In this document: one piece after another, positions 5,541 through 47,168 of the stretch
Layout of the letters: the number at the start of each line of letters is the position of its first letter
Position numbering within the stretch: position 1 is the first letter of the stretch
Assembly (NCBI GenBank): GCA_964568925.1
Contig: CAZMSJ010000004.1
Coordinates: forward strand, 1 to 62,479
From: an uncultured Gammaproteobacteria bacterium
GTDB lineage: Bacteria; Patescibacteriota; Microgenomatia; UBA8517
DNA: 62,479 nucleotides
Direction of reading: 5' to 3'
Translations under genes and position numbers: made by a program
Notes under the pieces: generated by a model
Seen by the model: only the letters and a program-made list of their open reading frames with translations
What the model was told of the DNA's origin: nothing
The model's database searches: none

Positions 5541-7820
5541 ATGGCTGCCCAACCATTAGTAGCGTTTTTCAAAGATATCGATAAACATGATGTTGCCTTA
5601 GTCGGTGGAAAGGGTGCAAATCTAGGAGAAATGACTCAAGCAGGTTTCCCTGTTCCTTATGGTTTTGCCATCACCGTTGCCTCCTATGACATCTTCCTCA
5701 AAGAAAACAATTTAATTGAGCCGTTAAATAAAATTATTGCCGAGCTTGATACTACTGATTCAACTGCTCTTTTGGCTGCATCAAAGAAAATTGAGAAGCT
5801 TATTATGTCTTCTCGTATGCCAGATGAAGTGGCAAAAGAAACGATTAAAGCATACAAAAAACTCTCTGGTGTCTTTAAGAAAGCTCTTGTTGCCGTTCGT
5901 AGTTCTGCAACCGCTGAAGACCTTCCTGGGATGTCATTTGCTGGTCAGCAAGCCACCTTCTTGGATGTGAAAGGTGAAGTTGCGCTTCTTGAGAAAGTAA
6001 AAGAATGTTGGGCATCTCTCTTTACTGCTCGAGCTATCTTCTATCGACACGAAAACAAAATCGATACAACACGGGTTAAGATTTCTGTCATTGTACAGAA
6101 AATGGTTCAGTCAGTTGTCTCTGGTGTTATGTTCTCCATTAATCCAGTAACCAACCAAAAGGATCGCATTGTTATTGAGTCTGTTTGGGGACTCGGAGAA
6201 ATGATTGTGCAAGGAGCAGTAGCACCTGACAATTATGTAGTTCAAAAGGATACATACGCTATTCTTTCTCGTGAGATTTCAGATCAGTCAATTATGCTTG
6301 TCAGAAAAGGTGGAGAACCAAAAGAGGTTGAAGTTCCAAAGGCATGGAGAGACAAACAGAAAATTAGTGATGAAGAAATAGTAAAGCTCGCTAAAATTGC
6401 ACAGAAATTGCAAGACCACTATTACTTCCCACAAGATATGGAGTGGGCAAAAGAAGGTGACAAACTGTTTATCACACAAACTCGTCCTGTTACAACCATT
6501 GATGTAACTCGAAAGTCAGTAAAGTCTACTGAAGGAAATACCGATGTTGCTGAACTTACACCAATTTTAACGGGTGTTGCATCAAGTCCTGGAATTGGAA
6601 GTGGTCATGTGAAGATTTTAAGGTCCCCAAGCGAAATTGGTAAAGTTCACACCGGTGATATTTTGGTTGCAGAAATGACTTCTCCTGACTATGTGCCTGC
6701 AATGAAGAAGGCATCTGCAATTATCACTGATCAAGGCGGATTAACTTCTCATGCAGCTATCGTTTCTCGAGAACTTGGAGTTCCGTGTGTCGTTGGTACA
6801 CGAGAAGCTACAAAGAAGCTGAAGGAAGATATGGTTGTGACCGTTGATGGAGCAAAGGGACTTGTTTATATGGGTGGAAAGGTTGCAGTAGATATTAAGG
6901 CCAACACTGCAAAGATTGCAGTACGAGATACCAGCAAACTTAAAACTGCAACAAAACTCTACGTTAACTTAGCTGAGCCAGAAAGAGCTCGTGAGGTAGC
7001 AAAGATGAATGTTGATGGGGTTGGACTTCTCAGAGCTGAATTCATGATCGCAAATATCGGTGTTCATCCAAAAGAAGCAATTAAAACCAAAACTCAGCAA
7101 ATGTTTATTAAGAAGTTAGCTGCTGATCTTGAACTTTTCTGTAAAGCATTTGATCCACGACCAATTGTGTATCGAGCAACTGATTTTAAGACAAATGAGT
7201 ATCGATCTCTCCAAGGTGGTAAGGCATGGGAACCTGAAGAGCCAAATCCATTGATGGGATTCCGAGGAGCATTCCGATATGTGAATTCACCTGAGGTCTT
7301 TAATCTTGAGCTTGAAGCGATAAAAATAGTGCGAGAAAAGTATAAGAACTTGAGACTCATGATTCCATTTGTTCGCTCACCGGAGGAACTCTTGAGAGTC
7401 CGACGAATGGTTCATGCATCAGGGTTGTTTGAAAGTCCAACCTTTAAGTTCCAAATGATGGTTGAGTTACCAGTAAACGTTATTAAGCTTGAAGACTTTA
7501 TTAAAGTTGGAATTGATGGAATCTCAATTGGAAGTAATGACTTAACCATGTTATTGTTGGGTACGGATCGAGATAATGCTGAAGTTGCTCAAGCATACAA
7601 TGAGCGCGCTCCAGTAGTTGATTGGGCATTGCGACGAGCAATTCGCCTTTCAAACAAGCATGGAATCACCAGTTCAATTTGTGGACAGGCACCATCAAGT
7701 CATGATGAGTTAGTCACAAAGCTTGTTCGTTGGGGAGTGACCAGTATCTCAATTAATCCAGACTCAATCGATCGTGTTCGTGGAGTAATCTACGATGCAG
7801 AGAAAGAGCTCATGAAGTAA
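5541..7820 (+). CDS. ppsA: Phosphoenolpyruvate synthase (pyruvate, water dikinase)
   Basis: N-terminal GGKGANLGEM, phospho-histidine loop GGLTSHAAIVSRELGVPCVVG and a C-terminal PEP-utilizer domain. The 759-aa length fits PpsA better than the longer PPDK. Confidence 0.85.
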   Translation: MAAQPLVAFFKDIDKHDVALVGGKGANLGEMTQAGFPVPYGFAITVASYDIFLKENNLIEPLNKIIAELDTTDSTALLAASKKIEKLIMSSRMPDEVAKETIKAYKKLSGVFKKALVAVRSSATAEDLPGMSFAGQQATFLDVKGEVALLEKVKECWASLFTARAIFYRHENKIDTTRVKISVIVQKMVQSVVSGVMFSINPVTNQKDRIVIESVWGLGEMIVQGAVAPDNYVVQKDTYAILSREISDQSIMLVRKGGEPKEVEVPKAWRDKQKISDEEIVKLAKIAQKLQDHYYFPQDMEWAKEGDKLFITQTRPVTTIDVTRKSVKSTEGNTDVAELTPILTGVASSPGIGSGHVKILRSPSEIGKVHTGDILVAEMTSPDYVPAMKKASAIITDQGGLTSHAAIVSRELGVPCVVGTREATKKLKEDMVVTVDGAKGLVYMGGKVAVDIKANTAKIAVRDTSKLKTATKLYVNLAEPERAREVAKMNVDGVGLLRAEFMIANIGVHPKEAIKTKTQQMFIKKLAADLELFCKAFDPRPIVYRATDFKTNEYRSLQGGKAWEPEEPNPLMGFRGAFRYVNSPEVFNLELEAIKIVREKYKNLRLMIPFVRSPEELLRVRRMVHASGLFESPTFKFQMMVELPVNVIKLEDFIKVGIDGISIGSNDLTMLLLGTDRDNAEVAQAYNERAPVVDWALRRAIRLSNKHGITSSICGQAPSSHDELVTKLVRWGVTSISINPDSIDRVRGVIYDAEKELMK

Positions 7821-7824
7821 TCAT

Positions 7825-9099
7825 ATGGCAAAAATTTCACGAATATGGGCAAGAGAAATTCTTGACTCTCGTGCAACTCCTACAATTGAAACCGCTTGTC
7901 AGCTTGATAATGGAATGGTTGCTGTCGCATCCGTTCCATCAGGAGCTTCAACCGGAAGTTATGAGGCGCTTGAGCTTCGTGATGGTGATACCTCTCGCTT
8001 TTTAGGGAAGGGTGTTTTAAGTGCAGTGAACAACGTAAACACCATTCTTGGACCAGCTATTGTTGGAATGGACATCTCTGATCAGTGGTCAATTGATGCC
8101 AAACTTCTTTCAATTGATGGAACTGAAAACAAATCAAAGATGGGAGCAAATGCAATCCTCTCTATCTCTGAAGTTGTAGTGAAAGCTGCCGCGATGGCAT
8201 TAAATGTTCCTCTTTATATTTGGGTTAATAAACTTGCTGCAGCCAAAGGTATCGCTGCAACTCTCCACACGCCGACACCACTCTTTAATATGATTAACGG
8301 AGGATTGCATGGTGCTGGAAATCTTGATTTCCAGGAATTCTTCGTCATTCCTGCTAGTTCAAAAAATTACAGTGATGGATTGCGTTTAGGTGTTGAGGTC
8401 TACACAACCATTGGTAAAAATTTAGCCAGACGAGGTGCCATTCATTCAGTTGGGGATGAAGGTGGGTATGCACCTAACCTTTTTACAAACGCAGACGCAC
8501 TTGAAATTTTAGTTGAAGCAATTCGAGAAACAACCTATCAATTAGGTCGAGATGTTTTCCTCGGTCTTGATGTTGCAGCGTCCACTTTCTATAAAGCTGG
8601 CGCTTACACCATTCGGGACAAATCAACACCAATGAACGAACTTGGAATGATTGAGTTTTATAAGGAGTTAAATGGTATGTATCACTTGGCTGTTCTTGAA
8701 GATCCTTTAAACGAAGATGCTTGGAGTGGATGGCAAGCAATGCACAAGACTTTTGGTAACACATTCACCGTGGTTGGGGATGATCTTCTTGCGACAAACC
8801 CAGCTCGTGTTAAGAAAGCTATTGAAGAAGATGCGTGTAATGCCGTTCTTATTAAACCAAATCAAATCGGAACAATCACTGAAACACTTGATGTTATCAA
8901 GCTTGCTCGAGACGCCAAGTGGAAGATTATTGTTTCACATCGCTCTGGTGAAACCAATGAATTTTTCATTGCAGACTTTGCAGTAGGTGTTGGTGCTGAT
9001 CACGTAAAGTTTGGTGCACCAGCTCGTGGAGAACGTGTTGCCAAATATAACAGACTTTCGTCAATTGATGCAGAGCTTTCGATGCAACCCCACAGTTAA
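7825..9099 (+). CDS. eno: Enolase
   Basis: N-terminal ISRIWAREILDSRATPT and C-terminal VSHRSGETNEFFIADFAVG motifs. Confidence 0.95.
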   Translation: MAKISRIWAREILDSRATPTIETACQLDNGMVAVASVPSGASTGSYEALELRDGDTSRFLGKGVLSAVNNVNTILGPAIVGMDISDQWSIDAKLLSIDGTENKSKMGANAILSISEVVVKAAAMALNVPLYIWVNKLAAAKGIAATLHTPTPLFNMINGGLHGAGNLDFQEFFVIPASSKNYSDGLRLGVEVYTTIGKNLARRGAIHSVGDEGGYAPNLFTNADALEILVEAIRETTYQLGRDVFLGLDVAASTFYKAGAYTIRDKSTPMNELGMIEFYKELNGMYHLAVLEDPLNEDAWSGWQAMHKTFGNTFTVVGDDLLATNPARVKKAIEEDACNAVLIKPNQIGTITETLDVIKLARDAKWKIIVSHRSGETNEFFIADFAVGVGADHVKFGAPARGERVAKYNRLSSIDAELSMQPHS

Positions 9100-9116
9100 C
9101 TGACTTTTTTGAATGT

Positions 9117-10763
9117 ATGAATGATAACCCGCGATTCGCGATTTTGGCGATCCTTGATGGATGGGGACTAGCACCCGCTGGTCCTGGAAACGCGATTACT
9201 CAAGCAAATATACCTAACATGAGGGGGTACTGGGTGAGTTTTCCCCACACACAACTGGGTGCCAGTGGTCAGTCTGTTGGTCTTCCTCGTGGTGAAGTTG
9301 GTAACACAGAAACCGGACACTTAAATATTGGTGCAGGGAGAATTGTGTACCAGGATTTAGCTCGTATCAACATGGCGATTGCTGATGGTTCATTTTTTGA
9401 AAACCCTGAGCTTCTTGGTGCCATTGATCACGCGAGAAGAAACAACTCGAGTATTCACTTGATGGGACTTGTTGGAGCCGGTGGAGTACATTCAAATTCA
9501 GAACACTTGTATGCGCTCCTTTCGTTAATGCACAAGCATAATGTTTCAAACGTGTTTATTCATGTATTCACTGATGGTCGTGATTCTCCTCCAAACGCTG
9601 CCAAAACGTATATTACGGAACTAGAAAAGGTATGTAGTCGTGAAGGGGTTGGAACCATTGCTTCAGTCATGGGGAGATATTTTGCTATGGACCGTGACCA
9701 CCGATGGGAGAGAACACTTGCAGCATACAACGCTTTAGTTGCAGGGGAAGGAAAAACTGCACCAACTCCAATAGGCGCCATTGACGCCTCCTATGCACAG
9801 GGAAAAACTGATGAGTTCGTTGAGCCAACTCTTGTCGTGAAACCTGGAGAGAAAGCTCATCTAATTACAGATAACGATGCAATTATATTTTTTAATTTTA
9901 GAATTGATCGACCACGACAACTGTCTCGTGAGTTTTTAATGCAAGATGGCAATGCTCTTGCAACCAATTGGGGGTTTGATCCATTCAGCGTTAAGTATGG
10001 CGGAAAGCACACGGAAGAAGTTGTACCAGTCGTATTGCCTGAAAAGCGCAAGAAGATATTAAAAAATTTATACTTTGCAACGATGACAGAGTATGAGCGA
10101 CCACTCGTTGATGCTGGTGCACATGTGTGTTTCCCTCCTGAGAAAATTGCGATGCCACTTGGTCGAGTAATCTCTTCACATGGATACCGCCAGTTACGTG
10201 CAGCCGAGAGTGAGAAGGAGCGTTTTGTTACCTTCTATATGAATGGACAAGAAGAAGGTGCCTTTGCCGGGGAAGAGAGACTTATTGTTCCTTCACCAAA
10301 AGTTGCAACCTATGACCTGGCTCCACAAATGAGTGCTGTTGAATTAACAGAAGCTGTTATTAATAAAATTAGCCCTGGTGGGTATTCACTTGTCATTATG
10401 AATTTTGCGAATGCAGATATGGTAGGGCACACCGGTAACCTTGCTGCATGTATTAAAGCAGTTGAGACAATTGATGCGTGTATTGGGAAACTTGGGAATT
10501 TTGTATTAAGTCGTGGTGGTGCATTGTTTATAACCGCCGATCATGGAAACGTAGAAGAAAAGATTGATGCGCATACCGGTCAGATTTCAACAGAACATAG
10601 TGGAAACCCGGTACCCTTTATCGTTGTTTCCCAGCCATACATTGGAAAAGGAACCATGCTTCCGAGTGGAATACTTGCTGATGTTGCACCAACTATTTTG
10701 CAATACCTTTCAATTGAAGCGCCATCATCAATGATGGGAAAGAACCTCTTAAGTAGTCTTTAA
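9117..10763 (+). CDS. gpmI: 2,3-bisphosphoglycerate-independent phosphoglycerate mutase
   Basis: AILDGWG N-terminus, NFANADMVGHTG and ITADHGNVE metal-site motifs. The 548-aa length fits. Confidence 0.9.
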   Translation: MNDNPRFAILAILDGWGLAPAGPGNAITQANIPNMRGYWVSFPHTQLGASGQSVGLPRGEVGNTETGHLNIGAGRIVYQDLARINMAIADGSFFENPELLGAIDHARRNNSSIHLMGLVGAGGVHSNSEHLYALLSLMHKHNVSNVFIHVFTDGRDSPPNAAKTYITELEKVCSREGVGTIASVMGRYFAMDRDHRWERTLAAYNALVAGEGKTAPTPIGAIDASYAQGKTDEFVEPTLVVKPGEKAHLITDNDAIIFFNFRIDRPRQLSREFLMQDGNALATNWGFDPFSVKYGGKHTEEVVPVVLPEKRKKILKNLYFATMTEYERPLVDAGAHVCFPPEKIAMPLGRVISSHGYRQLRAAESEKERFVTFYMNGQEEGAFAGEERLIVPSPKVATYDLAPQMSAVELTEAVINKISPGGYSLVIMNFANADMVGHTGNLAACIKAVETIDACIGKLGNFVLSRGGALFITADHGNVEEKIDAHTGQISTEHSGNPVPFIVVSQPYIGKGTMLPSGILADVAPTILQYLSIEAPSSMMGKNLLSSL

Positions 10764-17670: not shown

Positions 17671-20577
17671 ATGGAAAAATACATCAAAGTTCGGGGTGCC
17701 CGACAACACAATCTACAAAACGTTGATTTAGACATTCCCAAAGACCGCTTAGTCGTTTTTACCGGGGTTTCTGGGAGTGGAAAGAGTTCTATGGCGTTTG
17801 ACACCATCTACGCTGAAGGACAAAGACGCTATGTAGAATCTCTTTCAACCTATGCTCGCCAATTTTTAGGCGTCATGGGCAAGCCTGACGTGGATCACAT
17901 TGAGGGGCTTTCTCCTGCCATTTCAATTGACCAGAAAACCGTTTCCCACAACCCTCGCTCAACCGTTGGAACAGTCACTGAAATTTATGACTATATGCGT
18001 CTTCTGTTTGCTCGTGTTGGGCATCCACACTGTCCAATTTGTGGACGTGAAATTGCAAGCCAATCCTTGGATCAGATTGTTGCCAAAGTTATGGTCTTAG
18101 TTGAGGAGCAAATTAAAAAAGACAAAATGGGAAGATACTTCATTATTTCTCCTGTTATTAAGGATCGAAAGGGAGAGTTTACTGCTTTGTTTGAAAACTT
18201 GAAGGCAAAAGGATTTCGACGGGTACGAATTGATGGACATGTGAGAGATTTGCAAGATGACCTTGTATTAATTAAAACCAATAAACACACCATCGAAGTT
18301 ATTGTTGATCGACTTGCAGTAACTGCAGCAGAACTAAAAGATGAAGTATCAAAGAATAATTTTGTTAAACGCTTAACTGATTCGATCGAACAATCTCTCT
18401 CCCTTTCAAACGGTCTCGTTAAAGTTTCTCGAGTCTTAGACGCAAGTTTTGAAATGCCAGAGTTTCCAAAGGAATTTGAAGATCATTTGTTCTCTGAAGC
18501 ATTTGCCTGTCCAGTCGACAACATTGAACTTCCTGAAATTGAACCACGAACATTTTCGTTTAACTCTCCACATGGTGCGTGTCCTGAATGTGCCGGTATT
18601 GGTCGCATCTTAAAAGTAAATGAGGCATTGGTCTTTGCACCAGAGCTTTCCATTAAAGAGGGCGGTATTATTCCGTTCTCAAGTATCTTTGAACATGACA
18701 CCTGGTTTTCTCGTATTTTGCTCACTGTTTGTGAAGAAAACAATATTAACGCCAGTACCGCTATCAAAAATTTAACTGCTGAGGAGAAAAAGATTATTCT
18801 GGGAGGAACTGGAAAGAGAACATACAAAGTATTTGGTCGAAACAGAATGGGTAAAGAAACTTCTATCTCAGAAGAGTTTCATGGAGTTACTGCAGAACTT
18901 GATAGGAGATACCGAGAGAGTGACAGTGACTATGTTAAAAATGCGATTGAAAAATACATGGTTGAGCAACCTTGTCCAGACTGTAAAGGAAAAAGACTTA
19001 AGCCAGAGGCATTGGCCATCACCATTGAAGGAATGTCTATTTCTGATGTGTGTGACTTAAGTATCGCGAAGTCACTTGTTTGGACCACAAATCTAACAAA
19101 CCCAAATGTGCTCTCAAATCGTGAAACCCAAATTGGAAGTTTAGTTATTAAAGAAATACGAGAACGTCTCGGTTTCTTAATTGATGTGGGACTAGACTAC
19201 ATTACTCTCTCTCGTGCAGCAGATACCCTTTCAGGTGGAGAAGCACAGCGTATTCGTTTAGCTTCCCAAATCGGTTCAGGACTCACCGGAGTCTTGTATG
19301 TCTTGGATGAACCAACGATTGGTTTGCACCCTAGGGACAATCTTCGATTAATTGAAACACTCAAAAGAATGAGAGAGCTTGGAAACTCTGTTGTTGTTGT
19401 AGAACACGATCGGGATGTCATGCTTTCAGCTGACTATATTTTTGATTTTGGACCAGCCGCAGGAAAGCATGGAGGAACTGTTGTTGCCAAAGGTACACCA
19501 GAGCAGTTAATGAATGACAAGCATTCGGTCACCGGACCTTATTTAGCTGATGCCAATAGAATTAACATTAGAAAGCCAAAGCCACGTGAGACGAAAGGGA
19601 CATTAACCTTGTCTGGTGCAAGACAATTTAACTTGAAAAACCTCACCTTAAAGATTCCTCTTGGAAAATTGACAGCAGTCTCTGGTGTTTCTGGAAGTGG
19701 TAAATCTACTTTAGTAGTTGAGACCTTGTACCACGCAATGCAGAAAGAATTACTTCGAAATTATCGACACCCAATTGGAGAATATGACCAAGTGCATGGC
19801 ATGGAAAACATCGACAAAGCAATTTTAATTGACCAGTCACCAATCGGAAGAACACCACGAAGTAACCCTGCAACATACACCAAGGTCTTTGATCTTATCC
19901 GTGATGTCTTCTCTGGAACACGAGAAGCAAAGGCCATGGGATTCAAAAAGGGACGATTTTCATTTAACGTAAAAGGTGGACGATGTGAGGCCTGTGAAGG
20001 ACAAGGACAAGTAAAGATTGAAATGCAGTTTATGCCTGACTTGTGGGTTACTTGTGAAGTCTGTAAAGGTGCACGATTTAATAGTCAAACCTTGGAAGTT
20101 CTCTATAAGGGAAAAAACATTGCTGAGGTACTCAAAATGACTGTTGGAGAAGCAAAGGAATTTTTCCATGTGTACCCAAACATCACTTCAAAGATTGAGA
20201 CACTTTCTGCAGTAGGACTTGATTATATGGAGTTAGGCCAAAGTGCTACAACACTCTCTGGAGGAGAAGCCCAACGGGTGAAACTTGCTACAGAGCTTGC
20301 TCGACGAGCAACTGGAAACACAGTCTACATTTTAGATGAACCAACGACAGGCTTACACTTCAAAGATCTTGAGAAACTCTTGGCTGTGTTAAATATTCTT
20401 GTTGAAAGAGGTAACACCGTTGTTGTTGTTGAACACAATCTTGATGTTATTAAAAATGCAGACTTTGTTGTTGATATGGGACCTGAAGGTGGAGAAGGTG
20501 GAGGATATATCGTTTCACAAGGAACACCAGATGACATTAAAAAAGACCCTCAAAGTGTGACAGGTAAGTTTTTGTAA
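17671..20577 (+). CDS. uvrA: Excinuclease ABC subunit A
   Basis: Two ABC modules (GVSGSGKSS and GVSGSGKST), two LSGGE signatures, and CxxC zinc-finger pairs. Length 968 aa. Confidence 0.95.
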   Translation: MEKYIKVRGARQHNLQNVDLDIPKDRLVVFTGVSGSGKSSMAFDTIYAEGQRRYVESLSTYARQFLGVMGKPDVDHIEGLSPAISIDQKTVSHNPRSTVGTVTEIYDYMRLLFARVGHPHCPICGREIASQSLDQIVAKVMVLVEEQIKKDKMGRYFIISPVIKDRKGEFTALFENLKAKGFRRVRIDGHVRDLQDDLVLIKTNKHTIEVIVDRLAVTAAELKDEVSKNNFVKRLTDSIEQSLSLSNGLVKVSRVLDASFEMPEFPKEFEDHLFSEAFACPVDNIELPEIEPRTFSFNSPHGACPECAGIGRILKVNEALVFAPELSIKEGGIIPFSSIFEHDTWFSRILLTVCEENNINASTAIKNLTAEEKKIILGGTGKRTYKVFGRNRMGKETSISEEFHGVTAELDRRYRESDSDYVKNAIEKYMVEQPCPDCKGKRLKPEALAITIEGMSISDVCDLSIAKSLVWTTNLTNPNVLSNRETQIGSLVIKEIRERLGFLIDVGLDYITLSRAADTLSGGEAQRIRLASQIGSGLTGVLYVLDEPTIGLHPRDNLRLIETLKRMRELGNSVVVVEHDRDVMLSADYIFDFGPAAGKHGGTVVAKGTPEQLMNDKHSVTGPYLADANRINIRKPKPRETKGTLTLSGARQFNLKNLTLKIPLGKLTAVSGVSGSGKSTLVVETLYHAMQKELLRNYRHPIGEYDQVHGMENIDKAILIDQSPIGRTPRSNPATYTKVFDLIRDVFSGTREAKAMGFKKGRFSFNVKGGRCEACEGQGQVKIEMQFMPDLWVTCEVCKGARFNSQTLEVLYKGKNIAEVLKMTVGEAKEFFHVYPNITSKIETLSAVGLDYMELGQSATTLSGGEAQRVKLATELARRATGNTVYILDEPTTGLHFKDLEKLLAVLNILVERGNTVVVVEHNLDVIKNADFVVDMGPEGGEGGGYIVSQGTPDDIKKDPQSVTGKFL

Positions 20578-20610
20578 TTCTTCGCGGATTTTCCTTTTAG
20601 ATAATTCTTC

Positions 20611-23577
20611 TTATCGAATATCCACTGACCCATCTGGGAAGAATGTCATCATTGTACCTTCATATGTGGCAACGACGTCATCAGGATAAAATACAGTTGC
20701 CGCTCTCCCTGTTGGGGCAGTAACTGGTAGGTTCAATTCTCGGGCGAGAGCTTCAGCTAATGGTTCCATATTATTTGGACAAGCAGCTGCATAGCATACT
20801 GAAAGTAACACTCCAGATGTTCCATCATTTATTTGTCCACTTGCAACAATCAATTGTGCCATTTCTTGTACTGTTGCCGGTTGCCCGTTTATTACAAAGA
20901 CAACTGAACCATCAGGATAGACACCCCCATGTCCACCGACAACAATTTCTCCTGGCTTTGCAATTTGTGCTGCCCAGCTTTCTGCATTCTGTACAGCAAC
21001 TGAGTCAGTTGGGTCGGCATAAACGATTGTTGGTGCCGAATTACTTCCGCCAATTGCTACCCCATATGCACCTGCAGAGTCAGTCAATAATCCTTGTTTT
21101 TGAAGATATACATAGAGTTCGTATTCTGTTTCACATGTTGGGCATAGGTTTAGTAATGATGCAAAATCATTTTTAAATACTGAAGGTGTTATCTTTCCGT
21201 TTGCTGCAACAATGTCGTCAACGACATTTGTTGGTAATGTTGCTTCTGAAACTGAAACACCTGCTCCAAATTGGAAATTTTGAGCAATACTTTGTGGTAA
21301 TGAAACGAGGAACTTTGCCCATCCAACGAGCGATTGTGAAACGTTCAGCCCATTAATTACGACTAAAGCTGCTTCAAGTACACAACTTGATCTCTTTCCT
21401 TCACCATATTCTTTTATACAAAGCTTGTATGCATCAATTGATGCGTTTGTTGCTGATACTCCTCCAAGTGACAAAGCGTCTGCAGATTGATATAACCCAA
21501 GTCCTATACACTGTAGACCTGAAAGTTGACCAGTCGAGCATGCTTGTCGTAATGCATTTGTTCGATCAATCCATTGTTGAATACCTGGTTCGAAAGGTCG
21601 GCATTGTGCACCAAAAGCAATTACAAGACCACTAGTCGGACAGTAACAAGATCTACTATCTCGACAGTAGTCATTTGCTGCAATACTTGGCTGACAATAA
21701 TCACCTGGAGCGATAAATTGATTTCCACATACACATTTACCACCTGTTGCTGGACAAGTCTGGCCAACATTAACTGTTATCGGGAAATTCGCGTTTTTAC
21801 AAACACATGAATTTGGGTCTGACGTATATGTACTATGTCCACAAACACCTGGTAACCCATCCGCATCTGTACACTTTGAACCAACAGTACCACCAAAATC
21901 ACAACTTCCCGCACCTCCTTGGCAAAGATTTGTTTGTCCATAAACTACACAAGATTTTGTATCTGAATAATACCTACAACCTGCAAGAATACAACCGATT
22001 TGATTACCGCTATTTTTCTCACACGTTGTATTTGGGTCAGCTGCGGCAGGCGCTGTTGTTGGCGGAATATAAGCAGGCTTTGTTCCACAGTAGGTTAGGC
22101 CATTTGCTTGATATGTTGCGTTCCCTGAACAACATGGTTTTGTACTTCCAACAGCTTTTACATTTCTATCTGCAATACATGAGAGTGGTATACATTTGTT
22201 GTTCGCAAAATCGTATTGGCAAGAATTTCCACCAGCTTCACATGTTGAAATTGTTGTGTATTGCCCACAGGCAGCTATTTGCCCAGCCACTGTTGTACAG
22301 TTATTGCTGTCAGCTCTTTTGACAGACGAGTTCCCTCCACAGAAGAATTGTTGTCCACTTTGTGCTATTTGTGACTCATACTTCCATCTTGCTTCACCGT
22401 TACACCAGACGTTGTTGAATGAAGTTTGTTGAGCTCCATCTGCACATTGGTTTCCACATTGCCACTGACCGGTTGCACATGTAGCTGTTGGCTTAATACC
22501 ACCACAGTTAAATCCATTTTGTGCAAATGTTTTTGAACAACCAACTGGACATGCACAAACACCCGCTGCACTATTACAGACCTGAATACAGGAGTTAATT
22601 GTTGTTGGCTTGTTACTACAAAAACCATTTGATGTTATGTCTGAGAAACTGTTCCAGGTACAAGATGGGTTTGCTTGGCATACTGCAATACCTTTGAGAG
22701 CAGAACAATTTAGCGTAACAACTTGGCCCCCACATGTTGCCCCAGACCCAAGTGACACTGATGTTTTCGCACATCCTGGTGGGCAGGTACAACTTCCGTT
22801 CAATGGACAAGGACTGATACAGGTACTGAGTGCATAGCTTCCCGTTTCCGTTTGTTGTGTGCACTTGTTGTTTGACCACAGACATGTTGCGGTATATCCA
22901 CATTCGAATTCGTTCGTTATCGTTGAACAAACCTTTGTTGTGCCTCCAGCTGGAATAGATGTTGGTGACGGAGAGGTAGATGGCTTTTGGCAATCAAGTG
23001 TTTCGTGTGCAACACCATTAACACAGGTATTCCAGCAAGCTCCTTGTCTCCAGAATGAATTATGCGGATGAATTCCACAGGAGGCTCCACTGGTTGGTTG
23101 TGGTGTTCCAACTGGTGGGGCAGTAATAACGGGAGGCGGTGTTGGAAGCCCTGATGGTCGAGGTGTTGCTGTTGGAGTGAGTGTCGCAGTTGGATTACAA
23201 GAAATTTGTATGGTTAATCCATTCCGACACATATAGGTGCACCCAAGGCTTAACCATTGAGAGCCGTTGGGATGTACACCACAGGGCTTTGGTGTTGCAG
23301 GAGGATTTGTTGGTCCAACAGGAGGCGCCGTTACAACTGGTGGCATGGTTGGAGGAACTGGAGTAGGAGGTTTGGGTGTTGGTTTTGGAGTTGGCTTTGG
23401 CGTTGCACAACTTCCAATTGGTAGCCATTGTGCACCTGAAGCTGGACAATATTGTTTAACCCCACCTACACACTGAGTTGCACCAGCTGTTGGGCATTGG
23501 GCTGCCTGAACAGTAATAGGGAAGACAACAAAGAGACCAAAAACCAACGCGAGGGTGCTAATTACTCTTCTGTACAT
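20611..23577 (-). CDS. Large secreted cysteine-rich modular protein (988 aa)
   Basis: Signal peptide (…FPITVQA/AQ), two Pro/Thr linkers, and repeated Cys modules (about 70 Cys by hand count). The C-terminal roughly 190 aa form a distinct domain with GGHGG...SVC. Confidence 0.8.
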   Translation of the reverse strand: MYRRVISTLALVFGLFVVFPITVQAAQCPTAGATQCVGGVKQYCPASGAQWLPIGSCATPKPTPKPTPKPPTPVPPTMPPVVTAPPVGPTNPPATPKPCGVHPNGSQWLSLGCTYMCRNGLTIQISCNPTATLTPTATPRPSGLPTPPPVITAPPVGTPQPTSGASCGIHPHNSFWRQGACWNTCVNGVAHETLDCQKPSTSPSPTSIPAGGTTKVCSTITNEFECGYTATCLWSNNKCTQQTETGSYALSTCISPCPLNGSCTCPPGCAKTSVSLGSGATCGGQVVTLNCSALKGIAVCQANPSCTWNSFSDITSNGFCSNKPTTINSCIQVCNSAAGVCACPVGCSKTFAQNGFNCGGIKPTATCATGQWQCGNQCADGAQQTSFNNVWCNGEARWKYESQIAQSGQQFFCGGNSSVKRADSNNCTTVAGQIAACGQYTTISTCEAGGNSCQYDFANNKCIPLSCIADRNVKAVGSTKPCCSGNATYQANGLTYCGTKPAYIPPTTAPAAADPNTTCEKNSGNQIGCILAGCRYYSDTKSCVVYGQTNLCQGGAGSCDFGGTVGSKCTDADGLPGVCGHSTYTSDPNSCVCKNANFPITVNVGQTCPATGGKCVCGNQFIAPGDYCQPSIAANDYCRDSRSCYCPTSGLVIAFGAQCRPFEPGIQQWIDRTNALRQACSTGQLSGLQCIGLGLYQSADALSLGGVSATNASIDAYKLCIKEYGEGKRSSCVLEAALVVINGLNVSQSLVGWAKFLVSLPQSIAQNFQFGAGVSVSEATLPTNVVDDIVAANGKITPSVFKNDFASLLNLCPTCETEYELYVYLQKQGLLTDSAGAYGVAIGGSNSAPTIVYADPTDSVAVQNAESWAAQIAKPGEIVVGGHGGVYPDGSVVFVINGQPATVQEMAQLIVASGQINDGTSGVLLSVCYAAACPNNMEPLAEALARELNLPVTAPTGRAATVFYPDDVVATYEGTMMTFFPDGSVDIR

Positions 23578-24593
23578 AGTGGTGAATTAAAACGCGGATA
23601 ACCAATAAAATTCTCATTTCCTAGTATCATCGGTGAACTTTTCAGTAAACAATAAAAGATTCCCGTTTTAGGATCTAGATTTAAGTGTGACAGAGTTTCA
23701 TTTGTTTGGTCAACATCGTTCTTCCAGAAATTATTGTCACTACCAGTAACTTCCATTGTTGAGTCGAGCGCTGTTCCATTTTGAACGAACAGAGTTTTAC
23801 TGAGGTCTATCTTTGTTGGTACATCACCATATATATAGAGCCCAATTTTCTTTGAGTCAGCAATTGTTACGCCTTCAATGGAAGTTTTTTCTGGGTAAAT
23901 TAAAGAAACAGCGTTGTTTGCACTTTGTACAAGAAGATTATTTGTAAAGGTAAGATTTGATTGGGTTGCCTGTAGGTGATCAGTGTTTTTTACAAATTGA
24001 GAGTTGTTGATGATAACCGAAGGAGTCTTGTCAGTTGTAATCCCGGTAACTGAATCTCCAATGTATGCATTTTCAACAAATACTTCGGTTGCTTGTTGTG
24101 CAGCAACAACTGTTCCACTTTTGTTTTGTAACTTACTGTCAGCTATTTTAATTTTTGCATTTTCTGATACATCAAACAGAGCTGACTTACTATCTCCAAT
24201 AACTGAAACCCAAGAAAGTGACAATACACTATTAGTTAGTCGCACATTACTGGTCATTTGTATTTGAATGTCTGTATTTGAGTCAGATTGATTGCCTTCA
24301 ATAACGACATTCATATTGTCTAGTTTAATCGGGTGTGAAATTGTGTAGGTCCCACGGTTAACAAAGATAGTAGCTTGACTGGATGTATTAATAGAAGCAA
24401 GTGCTGCTTCAAGATCTGTGCATGGACCTTCTTTTGTTACAACGACCTGGTTATCGTCATCAAGGAAACAATTTCCAGCTGCACTTGATCTGTTTATAGT
24501 TGGAGCTGCAATTTGAAGAGACAAAATCATGAGGAGGCTAAAAGCCAAAACTGCTGGTGCTGCTAGTAGTGTCCAGACTCGGACATGTTTCAT
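23562..24593 (-). CDS. Secreted parallel beta-helix repeat-like protein
   Basis: N-terminal signal or anchor. Roughly 22-aa periodic N/S/T-rich repeats (NSQFVKN, TFTNNLL, VQNGTAL). Its stop overlaps the start of the 988-aa gene by 16 nt. Confidence 0.5.
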   Translation of the reverse strand: MKHVRVWTLLAAPAVLAFSLLMILSLQIAAPTINRSSAAGNCFLDDDNQVVVTKEGPCTDLEAALASINTSSQATIFVNRGTYTISHPIKLDNMNVVIEGNQSDSNTDIQIQMTSNVRLTNSVLSLSWVSVIGDSKSALFDVSENAKIKIADSKLQNKSGTVVAAQQATEVFVENAYIGDSVTGITTDKTPSVIINNSQFVKNTDHLQATQSNLTFTNNLLVQSANNAVSLIYPEKTSIEGVTIADSKKIGLYIYGDVPTKIDLSKTLFVQNGTALDSTMEVTGSDNNFWKNDVDQTNETLSHLNLDPKTGIFYCLLKSSPMILGNENFIGYPRFNSPLCTEE

Positions 24594-24637
24594 ACTCTCA
24601 TATTACATGTTATTACTAGATACTGTACACTGACAGT

Positions 24638-25408
24638 ATGAAGCGAGTGTTTGCCATCTTCTTAGTTTTGTCCCTCCTTGTTTTCATCCCAAAAACAGTT
24701 TTAGCGAGTGATAGTTGTACTTTAGGTGAGCCACGAGTCAGTCGTAATCCAGATGGGTCATTTAATGTTGACGTTGCAGCTAACGCTTCAGGTCTTTCGG
24801 TTGGACCTAATTATCATTTAGTTATTGATTCAGGTACCACTGGAGATGTTGGCGGGAACTTAGGCAGCGAACGGGAAGTATTTGCGTTTCGTATTCCAAC
24901 CCTTCCATCTTCATACGCGGGATCAACTCATTTGGTGTATGTAAAAGATGTTACTTGTGTTGATTCTGATGTTGCTTCATGTGCTCCAGGAGGAATAAAG
25001 GGACCTTGTGTTCGTCCAGTCTTTTTTGATCCAAATGCTCTCGGTCCACAAGACTTGTCTACGCTCGCTCTTCCTCGGGCAGCAAAACAATTCAGTGTCT
25101 ATGAAGGTGGTTGTGACACATCTGCCGGTCCACTAACAGGAGTACAAACGGCAATTGGGTGTGTTCCTGTTGGCAACGTTACCGCCATGACTGCCTTTGC
25201 ATTACGATGGGCATTAGGAATTGCCAGTGGTGTCGGATTTTTAATGATTATTGTTGCAGGATATCGATATATGACCAGCAAAGGTGACCCAACGATTGTT
25301 ACCAGTGCAAAAGACTTGGCGACTGCTGCGGTCTATGGCATTTTAATGATTATTTTCTCAATTTTTATTCTTCGCATTATTGGAATAAATATATTGGGAC
25401 TTTTCTAA
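24638..25408 (+). CDS. Secreted protein with C-terminal TrbC/VirB2-like (T4SS-pilin-type) two-TM domain
   Basis: Signal peptide. The C-terminus TAIGCVP...FALRWALGIASGVGFLMIIVAGYRYMTSKGDPTIVTSAKDLATAAVYGILMIIFSIFIL matches, from memory, the pilin-like family common in CPR genomes. Confidence 0.55.
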   Translation: MKRVFAIFLVLSLLVFIPKTVLASDSCTLGEPRVSRNPDGSFNVDVAANASGLSVGPNYHLVIDSGTTGDVGGNLGSEREVFAFRIPTLPSSYAGSTHLVYVKDVTCVDSDVASCAPGGIKGPCVRPVFFDPNALGPQDLSTLALPRAAKQFSVYEGGCDTSAGPLTGVQTAIGCVPVGNVTAMTAFALRWALGIASGVGFLMIIVAGYRYMTSKGDPTIVTSAKDLATAAVYGILMIIFSIFILRIIGINILGLF

Positions 25409-25437
25409 TTCCCTTCGTGTACAATGTGGCCTCACAC

Positions 25438-27231
25438 ATGAAGAACATTTTGATAGTCCTTGTTACCCTGTTTCTTTTGTCTCCAGTTTCTGTATATGCA
25501 TCTGATTCACCGTTTGATATTCGTATTAATTCAACCTACACGTTGAAAGATGCTGGAAAAACACAAGCAGAGCACGAGATTTCAATACGGAACATAACAA
25601 CGGAGAAATTTGCTGAGTCAATTGATATTACGTTGTCTGATATTTTGTATGACTCAGTTGTGGCCTATGAAAATGGGGTAAAGCTTGCTGTTAGTTCCGT
25701 CTCAACAAATCCTCCCGTTTATAAAATAGTCTTTATCGATAAAGTTGTTGGTCGTGACCAAGTACGGAAGTTTATTTTGCAGACTGAGGACCACACATCG
25801 ATGAAGAAAGCTGGCGAAGTTTGGGAAGTGCGTCTACCAACCATTCTTGGAGACTTTAATAGGAAACGTCTTACAGTGAAAGCAGATAAGTCACTCGGGG
25901 AAATTGCAACGGTACGCCCTGAGCCAACAAAATTAAGTGATACGACTATTTCCTTTGAAAATGTAGGGGAGCATGAAATCTTTTTAGTCTTTGGTAAGTT
26001 TCAAGTATTAACCTTTGAATTAGGGTATGACTTAGTTAACAGGAGTAACGCAAGTGAAACCCGTGAACTTCCCGTTCCACCTGATACTGCTTATCAGAGA
26101 GTTCATCTAACAAACATTACACCGACCCCGACCAATATGCGGGTCGATGATGATGGCAATTGGATAGCACAATATAGCCTTAGTGCAGGACAGAAAATCC
26201 ATGTTGTTGCACGAGGTTCAGTTCAAGTCTATGAGTCTCCTATCCACTTTTTAAATAAACCAACCACAACTGACACAAATATCGGAGAAGCACCGTTCTG
26301 GGAAACTACAGACAGTCAATTGCTTGGTGTGGCAAACACTCTGACTGATGCACGTTCAGTGTATGACTATGTAGTCAATCATTTGTCATATGACTATCAG
26401 CGTGCACAAACTGATGGGAAACGAATGGGAGCACTGGCCGCATTTCAAAATCCTGAGTCAGCGTTGTGTCAGGAATTTTCTGATTTGTTTGTTACCTTAA
26501 TGCGTGCGAAAGGAATTCCTGCAAGAGTTGTAAATGGGTATGCCGTTGTTGATGATGAACGACTTACTCCACTTTCACAAAAGGGAGATGTGTTACATGC
26601 ATGGCCAGAGTATTGGGATAAGGATCGTGGGCTGTGGGTTGCCGTTGACCCAACCTGGGGAAAAACATCGGGTTTAAATTACTTTGATCGAATGGACTTT
26701 AAACGTATCGCATTTGTGATGCATGGGGAGTCCTCAGAGCTGCCACTTCCTCCTGGAAGTTTTCAACTTGAAGGAAGTGATGAGAAACTTATTTCTGTTT
26801 CCATTGGCACCTGGAATCAAGATCAAAACCAAGTGCAAGTTTCCTTAAGTGAAGAAAGTAGATTTCCTCTTTTTACATTGTCATTTGTTGCCAGGGTTGC
26901 AAACGTCGGTACCACAGCTTTTTACAATCAACGAGTGACAATTAAAACAGACAAGAGTGTAATCTCTGATTCAGTTGTTCCGGTGCTTCTTCCATATAGT
27001 CAGCTAGTTTATCCAATTCGAATTAAAGCCGGAATATTGGGAAATAGTTTGCCTCAGACCATTTCTATCGTGTCTGATGAGAGTGCGCGGGAACTTCCCA
27101 TTTCAAAGTCAGGTGTCACGATGACTCAATTACCACTTATTCTTTTGATTCTCACTCTTGCTGCCATTACAATTGTTGTAGTTGTCCCTCGACATCGAAA
27201 ATTCACCTTAAAGCATTTTTTGCGAACATGA
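25438..27231 (+). CDS. Transglutaminase-like cysteine protease-fold surface protein
   Basis: Signal peptide from the ATG at 25438. Core LCQEFSDLFVTLMRAKGIPARVVNGY ... HAWPEYW ... VAVDPT (Cys-His-Asp). C-terminal TM anchor. Confidence 0.8.
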   Translation: MKNILIVLVTLFLLSPVSVYASDSPFDIRINSTYTLKDAGKTQAEHEISIRNITTEKFAESIDITLSDILYDSVVAYENGVKLAVSSVSTNPPVYKIVFIDKVVGRDQVRKFILQTEDHTSMKKAGEVWEVRLPTILGDFNRKRLTVKADKSLGEIATVRPEPTKLSDTTISFENVGEHEIFLVFGKFQVLTFELGYDLVNRSNASETRELPVPPDTAYQRVHLTNITPTPTNMRVDDDGNWIAQYSLSAGQKIHVVARGSVQVYESPIHFLNKPTTTDTNIGEAPFWETTDSQLLGVANTLTDARSVYDYVVNHLSYDYQRAQTDGKRMGALAAFQNPESALCQEFSDLFVTLMRAKGIPARVVNGYAVVDDERLTPLSQKGDVLHAWPEYWDKDRGLWVAVDPTWGKTSGLNYFDRMDFKRIAFVMHGESSELPLPPGSFQLEGSDEKLISVSIGTWNQDQNQVQVSLSEESRFPLFTLSFVARVANVGTTAFYNQRVTIKTDKSVISDSVVPVLLPYSQLVYPIRIKAGILGNSLPQTISIVSDESARELPISKSGVTMTQLPLILLILTLAAITIVVVVPRHRKFTLKHFLRT

Positions 27232-28568
27232 AAACAATTTCCTTTACCAGAGAAAATATATTGAAGAGTCCTCAGACACCAGGTGTCTATATTTTTCGTG
27301 ACCCAAAAGGCAAACCAATCTACATTGGGAAAGCTAAAAATTTGAAGAACAGGCTAACGAGCTACATTGCTGTTTCCATGGGACCAAAGACCTATGCGAT
27401 GGTACACGAAGCAACAAACCTCTCGATGATTCAAGTTAATTCTGAAATTGAAGCCCTGTTACTTGAATCAAATTTAGTTAAAAAGTATTTACCAAAGTAC
27501 AACATTGAATTAAAAGATGATAAGAGCCCTCTCTACATTGCAATAACAAAAGAACCCTACCCACGGGTATTAACCTTGCGACAAACACAACTGGCTAGTT
27601 TTCCGGTCAAGAGATACTTTGGTCCCTTCGTTAATTGTGGTAGTGTCCGCAAAGTTTTAAAATTATTGCGCCGAGTTACCCCATACTCTCAGCACCCCAT
27701 TGGCAAGCGTGCCTGTATCTATCATCAGATTGGATTGTGTAACCCGTGTCCAAACACCATTGTGTATACCCAAGATGACAAAAGAAGAGAAACCTTAAAG
27801 CGAGAGTACATCTCAAATATTACTCGTCTTACAAAAATTCTTTCAGGAAAGCCAGATTTGGTCAAAACTGATTTGCAAAAAGAAATGGAAAGACATGCAA
27901 AGCTTGAAGAATTTGAAGAGGCATCTATTTATCGAGAGCGACTTGCAGCCCTTCATGCGGTTACAAGTCCCAATGCTTCAATTGAAGGGTATGTTCGTGA
28001 TCCCGAAATGTTAAGTGATATTCGGTATAAAGAAGCCCAAGAATTAAGTACTATCATCGAGCCATTCTTTGGGAAAAAGGAAATTGTCCGCATTGAATGT
28101 TTTGATATAGCTCACTTGTCTGGTACCCACCCAACGGCTTCAATGGTTACCTTCATTAATGGAGAACCAGACAAACATTTTTATCGTCATTTTCGTATAA
28201 AGAAAGAACGACAAAATAATGACACTGAAAGCATGAGAGAAGTATTAACTCGTCGATCAAAATATTTTGAATCGTGGGGCAAGCCTGATCTTCTTGTTGT
28301 TGATGGGGGAAAGGGACAGCTTTCAAAAGCAATTGAAGTATTGGGGAATGAGGTGACGATTGTTGGACTCGCAAAGCGATATGAAACAATCATTGCATTT
28401 GTTAACGGAGAGTTTCAAAGCATTGTGCTCCCTGACGGTGGGGCAAAGAACTTGATGCAGCGGATACGTGATGAAGCTCATCGTTTCGCTCGAAGGTATC
28501 ACCACAAGCTGGTAACTGATGCACTCCTATCCGCAGAAGAGAAAAGCAGTGTTAAAATAAAATCATGA
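27228..28568 (+). CDS. uvrC: Excinuclease ABC subunit C (short form, 446 aa)
   Basis: GIY-YIG (GVYIFRDPKGKPIYIGKAKNLKNRL), UVR motif (EEFEEASIYRERLAAL) and the DEAHRFA endonuclease motif. ATGA overlaps at both ends. Confidence 0.85.
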   Translation: MKTISFTRENILKSPQTPGVYIFRDPKGKPIYIGKAKNLKNRLTSYIAVSMGPKTYAMVHEATNLSMIQVNSEIEALLLESNLVKKYLPKYNIELKDDKSPLYIAITKEPYPRVLTLRQTQLASFPVKRYFGPFVNCGSVRKVLKLLRRVTPYSQHPIGKRACIYHQIGLCNPCPNTIVYTQDDKRRETLKREYISNITRLTKILSGKPDLVKTDLQKEMERHAKLEEFEEASIYRERLAALHAVTSPNASIEGYVRDPEMLSDIRYKEAQELSTIIEPFFGKKEIVRIECFDIAHLSGTHPTASMVTFINGEPDKHFYRHFRIKKERQNNDTESMREVLTRRSKYFESWGKPDLLVVDGGKGQLSKAIEVLGNEVTIVGLAKRYETIIAFVNGEFQSIVLPDGGAKNLMQRIRDEAHRFARRYHHKLVTDALLSAEEKSSVKIKS

Positions 28569-46270: not shown

Positions 46271-46795
46271 CTAGTTATTGGAGACTTCTTTGGTTGCAGC
46301 GAGGTCTGCAAAGGCAATCCAGTGGTATGTTGGAATCTGATATTTGTCGTCATCTTCATTGGCAAAGTCATACCAATCTTTCTCAAATTCAGCTCTTTTC
46401 ACGGTATAAATTCCCTTTTGACCTTGTAAATTTTCTCCGTTTGATGGATCAAAAATGGTATAAGTCTCAGTGTCTGGGTCATATGAATCGACCAAAACGT
46501 AATGTCCGCCTGATCCAGTCTCATCGTGGTACATAATATTGGCAATAACCCCGTATCCACGCTTCAAAAGGTGATATACGCGTTCTGTGGTGGCTCCTGC
46601 TTCGGTTCCATGGCGCCAGAATTGTAAATGAAGGTATTTGGCCATACTTTCGTACGAGCTACCCCAATTTGGGTCATAAACCTCGTCCGCGATCTCTTTT
46701 TGAGTTTTCGTTATTCCCGCTCGGAGCAAAAGCATTTGAAGTGTTGCTGGTCCACACCAGCCATCGTCTTCCTGGTATCTGTGCAATGGATGCAT
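46271..46795 (-). CDS. Papain-fold cysteine peptidase, C39-like
   Basis: QEDDGWCGPATLQMLL (Cys), SGGHYVLVDSYD (His) and IFDPSNG (Asp/Asn), with no signal peptide. The ATG at 46795 avoids overlap with the upstream ORF. Confidence 0.6.
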   Translation of the reverse strand: MHPLHRYQEDDGWCGPATLQMLLLRAGITKTQKEIADEVYDPNWGSSYESMAKYLHLQFWRHGTEAGATTERVYHLLKRGYGVIANIMYHDETGSGGHYVLVDSYDPDTETYTIFDPSNGENLQGQKGIYTVKRAEFEKDWYDFANEDDDKYQIPTYHWIAFADLAATKEVSNN

Positions 46796-46808
46796 GGAAG
46801 GTAGCTTA

Positions 46809-47168
46809 TTATTCCTCGTCGTCTTCGTCAAGCCCCTTTGGGTCACCAATTACCCGTCCAAACGGGTCAATTTCAATATCGTCGTCGTCCAAATCCTTCT
46901 CTTCTTCCTCAGCTTCTTCGTCTTCCTCGTTCAAATCAGCGTCATTTCCTTGGTGAAGTTCAATTTCTTCAGCATCGTCGACTTCTTTAGCGATGTCGAG
47001 TGGTTCGTCGTCATGGTGTTCCTCACCAGTTAATTCAGTAAAGCGAGTGTCGACATCATCATCTGATTCGAGATCCTCGTTTGTTCCTCCGGTTGCTTCG
47101 TCACCATAGAACTCATCATCATCTTTTCGAAGTTCTTCTTCAATTTTTGTTGGATCTTGTCGTACCAT
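46809..47168 (-). CDS. Hyper-acidic protein (about 119 aa, roughly 45 percent Asp+Glu)
   Basis: Hand count gives about 55 D/E of 119 residues from the ATG at 47168. It lies 13 nt upstream of the peptidase gene. Confidence 0.5.
   Translation of the reverse strand: MVRQDPTKIEEELRKDDDEFYGDEATGGTNEDLESDDDVDTRFTELTGEEHHDDEPLDIAKEVDDAEEIELHQGNDADLNEEDEEAEEEEKDLDDDDIEIDPFGRVIGDPKGLDEDDEE

Follow-up and report, generated by a model that had tools for sequence, protein, structure and literature searches.

Large secreted proteins rich in cysteine have precedents in the candidate phyla radiation (CPR). About 20 large proteins (1,655 ± 751 aa), mostly with a predicted signal peptide, were described in Peribacteria, and the products of a 14-gene cluster among them contain 7.2 ± 2.4% Cys (Anantharaman et al. 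2016, PMC4736985). These large extracellular proteins vary between strains, and a role in attachment was proposed for them in the same study. A secreted Cys-rich protein has also been mentioned for Roizmanbacteria (PMC6509639). Here, a 62,479-nucleotide stretch of DNA (contig CAZMSJ010000004.1 of assembly GCA_964568925.1, Patescibacteriota; 'the window') was analysed for a gene that encodes a Cys-rich, modular protein of 988 aa. An initial annotation, made from the sequence alone, had considered the Cys content striking for a small-genome bacterium. The large secreted proteins of Peribacteria, with about 7% Cys, do not bear this out; given both precedents, the general kind of protein is known, and the Cys content is therefore unsurprising in itself. 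Our analysis points, with guarded confidence, to a probable host-contact protein that carries a functional, exchangeable C-terminal head.

The translated frame contains 72 Cys in 988 aa (7.3%), close to the earlier hand count of about 70 (about 7%). All but four lie within residues 28–732 (68/72), and the last 250 residues hold only 4 Cys. Among 34 other open reading frames (ORFs) of the window, Cys content averages 0.66%, with a maximum of ≤2.3%; against this background, the binomial tail for 72 Cys in 988 aa is 1.7e-49. Residues 5–23 form the sole transmembrane (TM)-like segment of the protein (Kyte-Doolittle 2.49), preceded by MYRR and followed by VQA/AQ. By inspection, the N-terminus is a standard Sec signal peptide, as had been claimed, and every one of the 72 Cys falls in the predicted mature chain, so that up to 36 disulfides are possible. 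We infer that the Cys form disulfides because their total is even, their location extracellular, and their number even within each module. A secreted, modular and putatively disulfide-rich protein, as first described, is thus supported. The earlier description of the modules covers the Cys-rich part; the Cys-poor C-terminal third (residues 663–988) was overlooked.

This C-terminal third begins with a helical module (residues 663–835), which could be aligned across the window protein and its relatives P0002, P0003, P0005 and P0008. Three motifs are invariant in the five proteins: G-[IL]-x-Q-W-[IF]-x-R-T, L-[ST]-L-G and G-[KV]-I-T. The helices were predicted at low confidence. The module had no Pfam match, and its profile found nothing meaningful among PDB sequences. 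A role for residues 733–759 as a membrane-insertion hairpin was set aside as speculation, as their hydropathy (1.49) is below TM level. Towards its end, the module carries a CPTC motif (within CPTCETE; residues 812–815, 21133..21144), which is invariant in the window protein, P0001–P0004 and the ortholog on contig L009, and reads CGNC in P0005. Instead of an ordinary structural disulfide, these Cys could form a redox-active site or bind a metal.

The domain that follows the helical module differs among relatives. It is Peptidase C80-like in the window protein, P0001, P0002, P0004 and P0005. In P0008 it is protein-kinase-like (E=1.2e-4, below cutoff), with an HGDL...N...IDF pattern visible, and in P0003 it is unrelated to both types. 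Relatives thus swap their C-terminal domain, which suggests more than a passive adhesin. The original proposal of 'adhesin or host-contact' may hold as far as a surface or host-contact role is concerned, and the exchangeable C80-like head points beyond passive adhesion.

Assignment of the window domain (residues 836–988) to C80 runs through P0005. The C-terminus of P0005 passes the Pfam model PF11713 Peptidase_C80 (24.8 bits against a cutoff of 23.8, E=3e-5). A profile of four window-type C-termini matched this P0005 domain at 21.9 bits (E=6e-9, a single comparison), and the best of 2000 shuffles reached 7.4 bits. BLASTP of the window C-terminus against P0005 gave E=1e-5 across the Cys-containing strand and an L-x-LPV-x-A motif. 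By these sequence comparisons, window residues 836–988 were shown to be homologous to the C-terminal domain of P0005. The C80 label is transitive, as P0005 alone passes Pfam and is linked to the window protein by profile and BLASTP homology; the window domain would on this basis be C80-like and a putative protease. Cys928 is conserved in 5/5 C-terminal sequences and aligns with the P0005 Cys. Two C-terminal allele types occur among window-type proteins, and both keep His883-Gly and Cys928 at 44–46% identity. The order helix, strand-His-Gly, helix, strand-Cys would fit His883 ('GGHGG' / 'DAHGW' / 'DVHGW') just as well as the site at Asn897 that is described below. An AlphaFold2 (AF2) model of the domain (predicted local distance difference test score, pLDDT, 69.7; predicted template modelling score, pTM, 0.73) has a beta-alpha-beta arrangement with Cys928 right behind a strand. 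Foldseek searches of the PDB with this model gave a best E of 8.5e-3 (TM-score about 0.3), the weak matches including CHAT/caspase-like proteases (8tl0_B; Csx29 in 8eey_B) mixed with nitrilase-fold amidases. A literature search returned no report linking Peptidase C80 with Patescibacteria.

Several results weigh against a functional protease head on a disulfide-bonded protein. Neither the window protein nor its C-terminal 329 aa has a Pfam match to Peptidase_C80 at E≤10, and no C80 structure was found when the profile of the C-termini and the P0005 C-terminus were compared with PDB sequences. The top 50 Foldseek matches contain no structure of a C80 cysteine protease domain (CPD), and the nitrilase-fold amidases score level with CHAT proteins. 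In MAFFT and HMMER alignments, the His of 'VIHG' in P0005 lies opposite not His883 but Asn897 of 'VING' in the window protein (Asp in P0004); as the canonical His thus aligns with Asn897 or Asp, the catalytic dyad of the window domain may be broken. Cys928 could be structural, with Cys933 as a conserved partner. With 1 Lys, 3 Arg, 8 Asp and 7 Glu, the domain has a pI of 4.05; such a composition, with so few basic residues, argues that a basic activator pocket of the inositol hexakisphosphate (InsP6) type is absent. The AF2 model of the whole protein (five sequences) was unusable at a pLDDT of 38 and gave no disulfide topology, and Foldseek on it was meaningless. Finally, the Dsb-like oxidoreductase that the initial annotation had suggested looking for was not found within the 62-kb window: Pfam searches of 44 window ORFs and a CxxC-motif screen revealed no DsbA/B, thioredoxin-fold or VKOR gene and no WCxxC-type motif.

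The N-terminal two thirds of the protein were analysed for internal repeats by comparing Smith-Waterman scores with those of composition-preserving shuffles, a strict control because the Cys stay in the shuffled sequences. Two Pro/Thr linkers, at residues 58–98 and 128–166, contain 60–66% Pro+Thr+Ser, in agreement with their first description. The 4-Cys units behind them, A2 (99–127) and A3 (167–196), are clearly homologous (z=9.5), and linker and unit together (58–127 against 128–196) form a duplication of about 69 aa (z=11.7). A third copy had been proposed at residues 28–57. This unit has a Cys spacing of 7,7,12, against 13,3,9–10 in the other two, and its similarity is marginal to A2 (z=3.3) and absent to A3 (z=0.9), so that no third copy can be demonstrated. 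The tandem supermodule of about 75 aa was confirmed: residues 217–291 against 291–367 scored 101, compared with 39.6 ± 6.8 for shuffled sequences (z=9.0), and its C-type halves (253–291, C1, and 330–367, C2) also match (z=6.9). The motif given for it was slightly off, C-x8-C-x5-C-x-W being found in place of C-x8-C-x6-C-W. Of the further 4-Cys units that had been noted, those at 437–462 and 519–543 match residues 217–239 and 291–320 in spacing (C-x8/9-C-x4/6-C-x8-C), and their sequence similarity was not above shuffles. At the DNA level, no tandem repeats were found within the gene besides a 12-bp repeat in linker 1, and the duplications are therefore old.

Similarity searches placed none of these modules in a known family, as had been stated at the outset. 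The whole protein had 0 matches in Pfam, NCBIfam and PHROGs even at E≤10, and nothing meaningful among PDB sequences. Taken module by module against Pfam at E≤10, 8/9 modules were without a match, as was the C-terminal 329 aa. Residues 97–130 (A2) gave the sole, sub-threshold match, to TILa (E=0.003, 18.1 bits against a cutoff of 27). When the whole protein, and likewise profile A2, served as query, 3–4 relatives were recovered. In an exhaustive HMMER search, a profile of residues 205–988 with two homologs was compared with 1.84 billion (1.84e9) representatives, and 8 relatives were found at E≤1e-3. The family is very rare. A scan of genome contigs matched solely the contig already known, and a scan of a metagenome contig collection with the helical module had no match, the motif-bearing JGI contigs (L009) lying outside that collection. 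A word-index search with the C-terminal 155 aa also had no match and missed even the 96%-identical P0001 C-terminus, which reflects a limit of the prefilter and not biology.

The relatives share different parts of the protein. P0003 is 41% identical to the window protein, with nearly every Cys invariant and all Cys of region 437–659 kept. P0005 (612 aa, with an N-terminal membrane anchor) shares window residues ~505–835 at 276 bits, and P0007 has supermodule copy 1. The D module (residues 367–427) occurs in 2–3 copies in P0006, P0009, P0010 and the ORF upstream of P0003 on contig L001, with the pattern CxxGxWxCGxxCA..FNxxWCxGExRWKYE. Two D modules are fused to a C-terminal VirB2-like pilin domain in P0010, and D modules are combined with Big_7 and a dockerin-like tail in P0006; judged by these partner domains, the fusion contexts are extracellular.

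Three contigs of relatives provided side observations. On L001 (7233..13192), P0003 lacks a signal peptide and overlaps an upstream 936-aa Cys-rich ORF with an N-terminal membrane anchor, and Cys-rich coding runs across their junction in the other frame. The pair is probably one gene of about 2,000 aa with a frameshift near 9990 (assembly error or pseudogene). On L005 (2..6430), P0005 is flanked by two large proteins with a like N-terminal anchor (..FNRL..K..hydrophobic..FLAKRxTQPVH) and repeated immunoglobulin-like units, an arrangement suggestive of paralogous, anchored surface proteins in a cluster. Contig L004 encodes PEGA and PMT_2 proteins and many ORFs without a Pfam match.

Orthologs were found intact in independent assemblies. 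With this and the lack of matches to established domain families, neither of the two outcomes that would have counted against the initial annotation was obtained. The 988-aa frame is uninterrupted in the window, on contigs L002 and L003 and on a contig of sequencing run X1. Intact orthologs comprise P0001 (95% identity, NCBI metagenome contig), P0002 (70%, JGI) and the more distant, syntenic ortholog of L009. The last of these has a full frame of 1019 aa (6432..9491) whose ATG overlaps the stop of the beta-helix gene, as in the window; JGI had called it in shortened form, as P0004 (496 aa). Nei-Gojobori ratios of nonsynonymous to synonymous substitution (dN/dS) were 0.07 against L003 and 0.16 against L002, and 0.03–0.37 in every segment, by which the gene was shown to be under purifying selection. 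The sequence occurs in wastewater, freshwater, sludge, soil and riverine metagenomes of 8 studies. The X1 contig matches 20300..24191 without a difference, and run X5 of a different study yielded identical contigs as well. Metatranscriptome contigs (runs X7 and X13) of an allele about 95% identical cover much of the gene and its junction with the upstream gene. The gene is transcribed by this evidence, with the caveat that metatranscriptome libraries can contain DNA.

Comparison of alleles showed abrupt changes in divergence along the gene. Against L002, the beta-helix protein encoded upstream is 96% identical (dS 0.155), and identity of the Cys-rich protein falls from 100% at the N-terminus to 50–59% at residues 501–662 and 44% in the C-terminal domain. 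Nucleotide identity jumps from 99 to 66% and from 95 to 50%. Against L003, it is mostly 95–99%, with 66% at residues 201–250 and 82–85% at 251–450. Across segments, dS ranges from 0.09 to saturation while dN/dS is low throughout. Heterogeneous dS combined with low dN/dS indicates recombination between old alleles, and on these sequence grounds the alleles were shown to be recombination mosaics. Positive selection for the variable patches was rejected, with dN/dS <0.4 everywhere and dS strongly heterogeneous. Copy number varies as well. A comparison of repeat numbers across relatives, which the initial annotation had proposed, revealed one extra linker and 4-Cys unit in the L009 ortholog, giving three A2-like units against two in the window. 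In the metatranscriptome contigs of the related strain (X7, X13), the 3′ end of uvrA (20583) is joined to ~21167, and the sequence between is unlike the window. A co-occurring strain that carries the second type of C-terminal allele probably accounts for this divergent stretch.

The coordinates of the gene, its modules and two neighbouring genes are collected in Table 1. The beta-helix gene lies immediately upstream; its stop and the start of the Cys-rich gene fall within a 16-nt overlap. The pairing is kept in L002, L003 and L009, and the RNA-run contigs across the junction suggest a single transcript; the two genes are probably co-transcribed. Downstream, uvrA is convergent at a distance of 33 bp, an arrangement also seen in L009 and L010, and no candidate immunity gene lies downstream of the Cys-rich ORF. 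The pair is divergent from three plus-strand genes, which encode a VirB2-like pilin-type protein, a 604-aa transglutaminase-core protein and UvrC, and L009 (1..11700) keeps the gene order of the window. Between uvrA and uvrC, the beta-helix, Cys-rich, VirB2-like and transglutaminase-core genes form a four-gene surface cluster (23562..27231; 17671..28568). The VirB2-like protein has a signal peptide, an N-terminal part with 2.3% Cys and a C-terminal two-helix domain, which is homologous to the C-terminus of P0010 (E=1e-13). This PF18895-type family is widespread in CPR (bioRxiv 10.1101/2025.01.22.634366). Together with habitat and gene content, this neighbour is an indirect sign that the organism is probably a member of Patescibacteria/CPR. 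The remaining window genes are housekeeping (glycolysis, ATP synthase, uvrB, lexA, leuS, K+ and cation transporters), and the window is chromosomal and not a mobile element. Elsewhere in the window (46271..46849, minus strand), a stand-alone 192-aa Peptidase_C39-like protein (E=8e-14) is encoded without an ABC transporter domain, adjoining small unannotated ORFs and a MarR-family regulator.

Table 1. Coordinates of the Cys-rich gene, the modules of its product and two neighbouring genes in the window.
Feature	Residues	Coordinates	Strand	Details
Cys-rich gene	1–988	20611..23577	minus	Intact ORF, 988 aa + stop, ATG start, 72 Cys
Predicted signal peptide	1–26	23500..23577	minus	MYRR + hydrophobic core + VQA/AQ; sequence inspection and hydropathy
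First 4-Cys unit	28–57	23407..23496	minus	Cys spacing 7,7,12
PT-linker 1 + 4-Cys unit A2	58–127	23197..23406	minus	z=11.7 against residues 128–196
PT-linker 2 + 4-Cys unit A3	128–196	22990..23196	minus	Duplicate of PT-linker 1 + A2
Supermodule copy 1	217–291	22705..22929	minus	C-x8-C-x5-C-x-W-x5-C, then CIxxC..CxCPxGC..CGG..C
Supermodule copy 2	291–367	22477..22707	minus	z=9 against copy 1
D module	367–427	22297..22479	minus	CxxGxWxCGxxCA..FNxxWCNGExRWKYE..CGG
Further Cys-rich units	437–659	21601..22269	minus	4-Cys units 437–462 and 519–543; three CxC..G..C mini-units 591–659
Conserved Cys-poor helical module	663–835	21073..21591	minus	Motifs GIQQWIDRTNALR, LSLGG, GKITP, CPTCETE
C-terminal acidic alpha/beta domain, candidate clan-CD / Peptidase C80-like	836–988	20614..21072	minus	Cys928 and His883 conserved (or Asn897 at canonical His site)
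Probable upstream operon partner, secreted/anchored right-handed beta-helix protein, 343 aa		23562..24593	minus	Pfam Beta_helix/NosD/Pect-lyase
VirB2-like pilin-type protein, 256 aa		24638..25408	plus	Pfam T4SS_pilin PF18895, 22.4 bits against cutoff 26.6

Taken as a host-contact protein with an exchangeable head, the product would work as follows. It would be exported by the Sec pathway as an extracellular protein, and its signal peptide would then be cleaved. The N-terminal two thirds, with small Cys modules on Pro/Thr linkers, would make up a stalk or binding region that is extended and resists proteases, and this stalk would diversify between strains by recombination of allelic segments and by gain or loss of linker and module. 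In the C-terminal third, the conserved helical module would lead into an acidic alpha/beta head distantly related to Peptidase C80 (clan CD), with relatives keeping stalk and helical module and bearing other heads, kinase-like or of unknown kind. Together with the beta-helix protein, which is probably co-transcribed, the Cys-rich protein would function where the cell meets another one: its stalk would serve for projection or binding, and its head, possibly by proteolysis, would act on the target surface or be released there.

The alternative that survives best is the one closest to the initial annotation, namely a purely structural or adhesive surface protein. Its Cys-rich modules and C-terminal domain would do no more than bind a target, for example a host protein or cell-wall glycan, and the C80-like domain would be catalytically dead, with a part in binding or folding. 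The alignment of the canonical His site with Asn/Asp in window-type alleles, the possible Cys928/Cys933 disulfide and the missing Pfam C80 match all favour it. So does the combination of linker-and-module architecture with copy-number variation, which is typical of adhesins, and attachment has been proposed for the Cys-rich proteins of CPR bacteria (PMC4736985). A dead module is, however, hard to reconcile with the retention of His883-Gly and Cys928 across both C-terminal allele types, with the low dN/dS of the head itself (0.04–0.37) and with a kinase-like head in a relative, which a structural role hardly explains. We regard this alternative as unlikely, yet one to be taken seriously.

A further proposal is a lineage-restricted scaffold by which episymbiotic small-genome bacteria would present effectors. 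Behind a disulfide-knotted, recombining stalk, a conserved helical adaptor would bear exchangeable enzymatic heads (C80-like protease, kinase-like or unknown), which would have their targets on the surface of the host or inside it and would operate without immunity genes. If true, this scheme would represent a new class of polymorphic proteins for host manipulation, different from the toxin-delivery systems already described. At present we give this scheme rather little credence.

Less probable again is a polymorphic toxin or antagonistic effector, whose exchangeable C-terminal toxin would enter competitors or hosts by way of the stalk and helical 'pre-toxin' module. Such an organization is suggested by the conserved N-terminal/helical region that precedes three unrelated C-terminal domains among relatives, by the concentration of recombination mosaics towards the C-terminal half, and by the RNA-run contig of the related strain, whose departure from the window coincides exactly with the C-terminal domain. 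Both types of C-terminal allele belong to one fold family, though, and are not different toxins. No TM or translocation segment is present in the protein (best Kyte-Doolittle 1.49), no known toxin family was matched in Pfam, NCBIfam or PHROGs, and the place of an immunity gene is taken by convergent uvrA 33 bp downstream, likewise in L009 and L010. As immunity gene and toxin family are both absent, this explanation is weakened and appears improbable. A non-functional sequence (chance ORF, assembly chimera or decaying pseudogene), to which the shortened 496-aa call of the L009 ortholog and the apparently frameshift-split L001 homolog might have pointed, is effectively refuted by the intact frames of 988 and 1019 aa, dN/dS of 0.07–0.16, nearly complete conservation of Cys at 41% identity and metatranscriptome contigs that cover the gene.

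Few proteins are known that mediate the cell contact of episymbiotic small-genome bacteria, which depend on such contact. The locus is a concrete candidate for a contact protein, being expressed, conserved and strain-variable. Its stalk modules have no assigned family, its helical adaptor is confined to this family, and different relatives bear different heads. If the head were an active C80-like protease working without InsP6, a self-processing domain associated with toxins would be extended to interfaces between bacteria; even otherwise, several new types of Cys-rich domain come with this family. The locus also exemplifies recombination-driven surface variation beside core repair genes (uvrA/uvrC).

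The protein was finally compared with the systems it most resembles. By its arrangement of secretion signal, long repetitive stalk, conserved module before a variable C-terminus and recombination-driven allele diversity, it is similar to polymorphic toxins. It differs from these in that an immunity gene next to it is missing and that no domain of the toxin, pre-toxin (PT-TG/PT-HINT/VENN) or trafficking kind was recognised. With the Peptidase C80 CPDs of MARTX and large clostridial toxins, the head shares the order strand-His-Gly, helix, strand-Cys, helix, strand. The CPD is internal, whereas the window domain is terminal, and the CPD acts in the eukaryotic cytosol, whereas the window context is bacterial and extracellular. 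The toxin domains have a basic InsP6 pocket, in contrast to the acidic window domain with its canonical His perhaps replaced by Asn, and the link itself passes through P0005, the window domain having no direct Pfam, PDB-sequence or Foldseek match.

For the Cys modules, a likeness to TIL/TILa, VWC, EGF and PSI modules is apparent in their size (25–40 aa), their 4–8 Cys and the A2 pattern C..G..W....C...C.NG......C. Their Cys spacings differ, the sole match is below cutoff (TILa, 18.1 < 27 bits), and the resemblance to eukaryote-type disulfide modules appears to be one of pattern only. The closest counterparts by description are the Cys-rich proteins of Peribacteria, which are likewise large, with a signal peptide and about 7% Cys, have no functional annotation and vary between strains. 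The window protein is shorter than these (988 against a mean of 1,655 aa), and the L001 homolog may reach about 2,000 aa. The Peribacteria study does not describe the helical module or the C80-like, exchangeable C-terminal domain found here. What this locus adds is its own set of module types, a conserved helical module, C-termini that are C80-related and exchangeable, and documented variation in mosaic structure and copy number.

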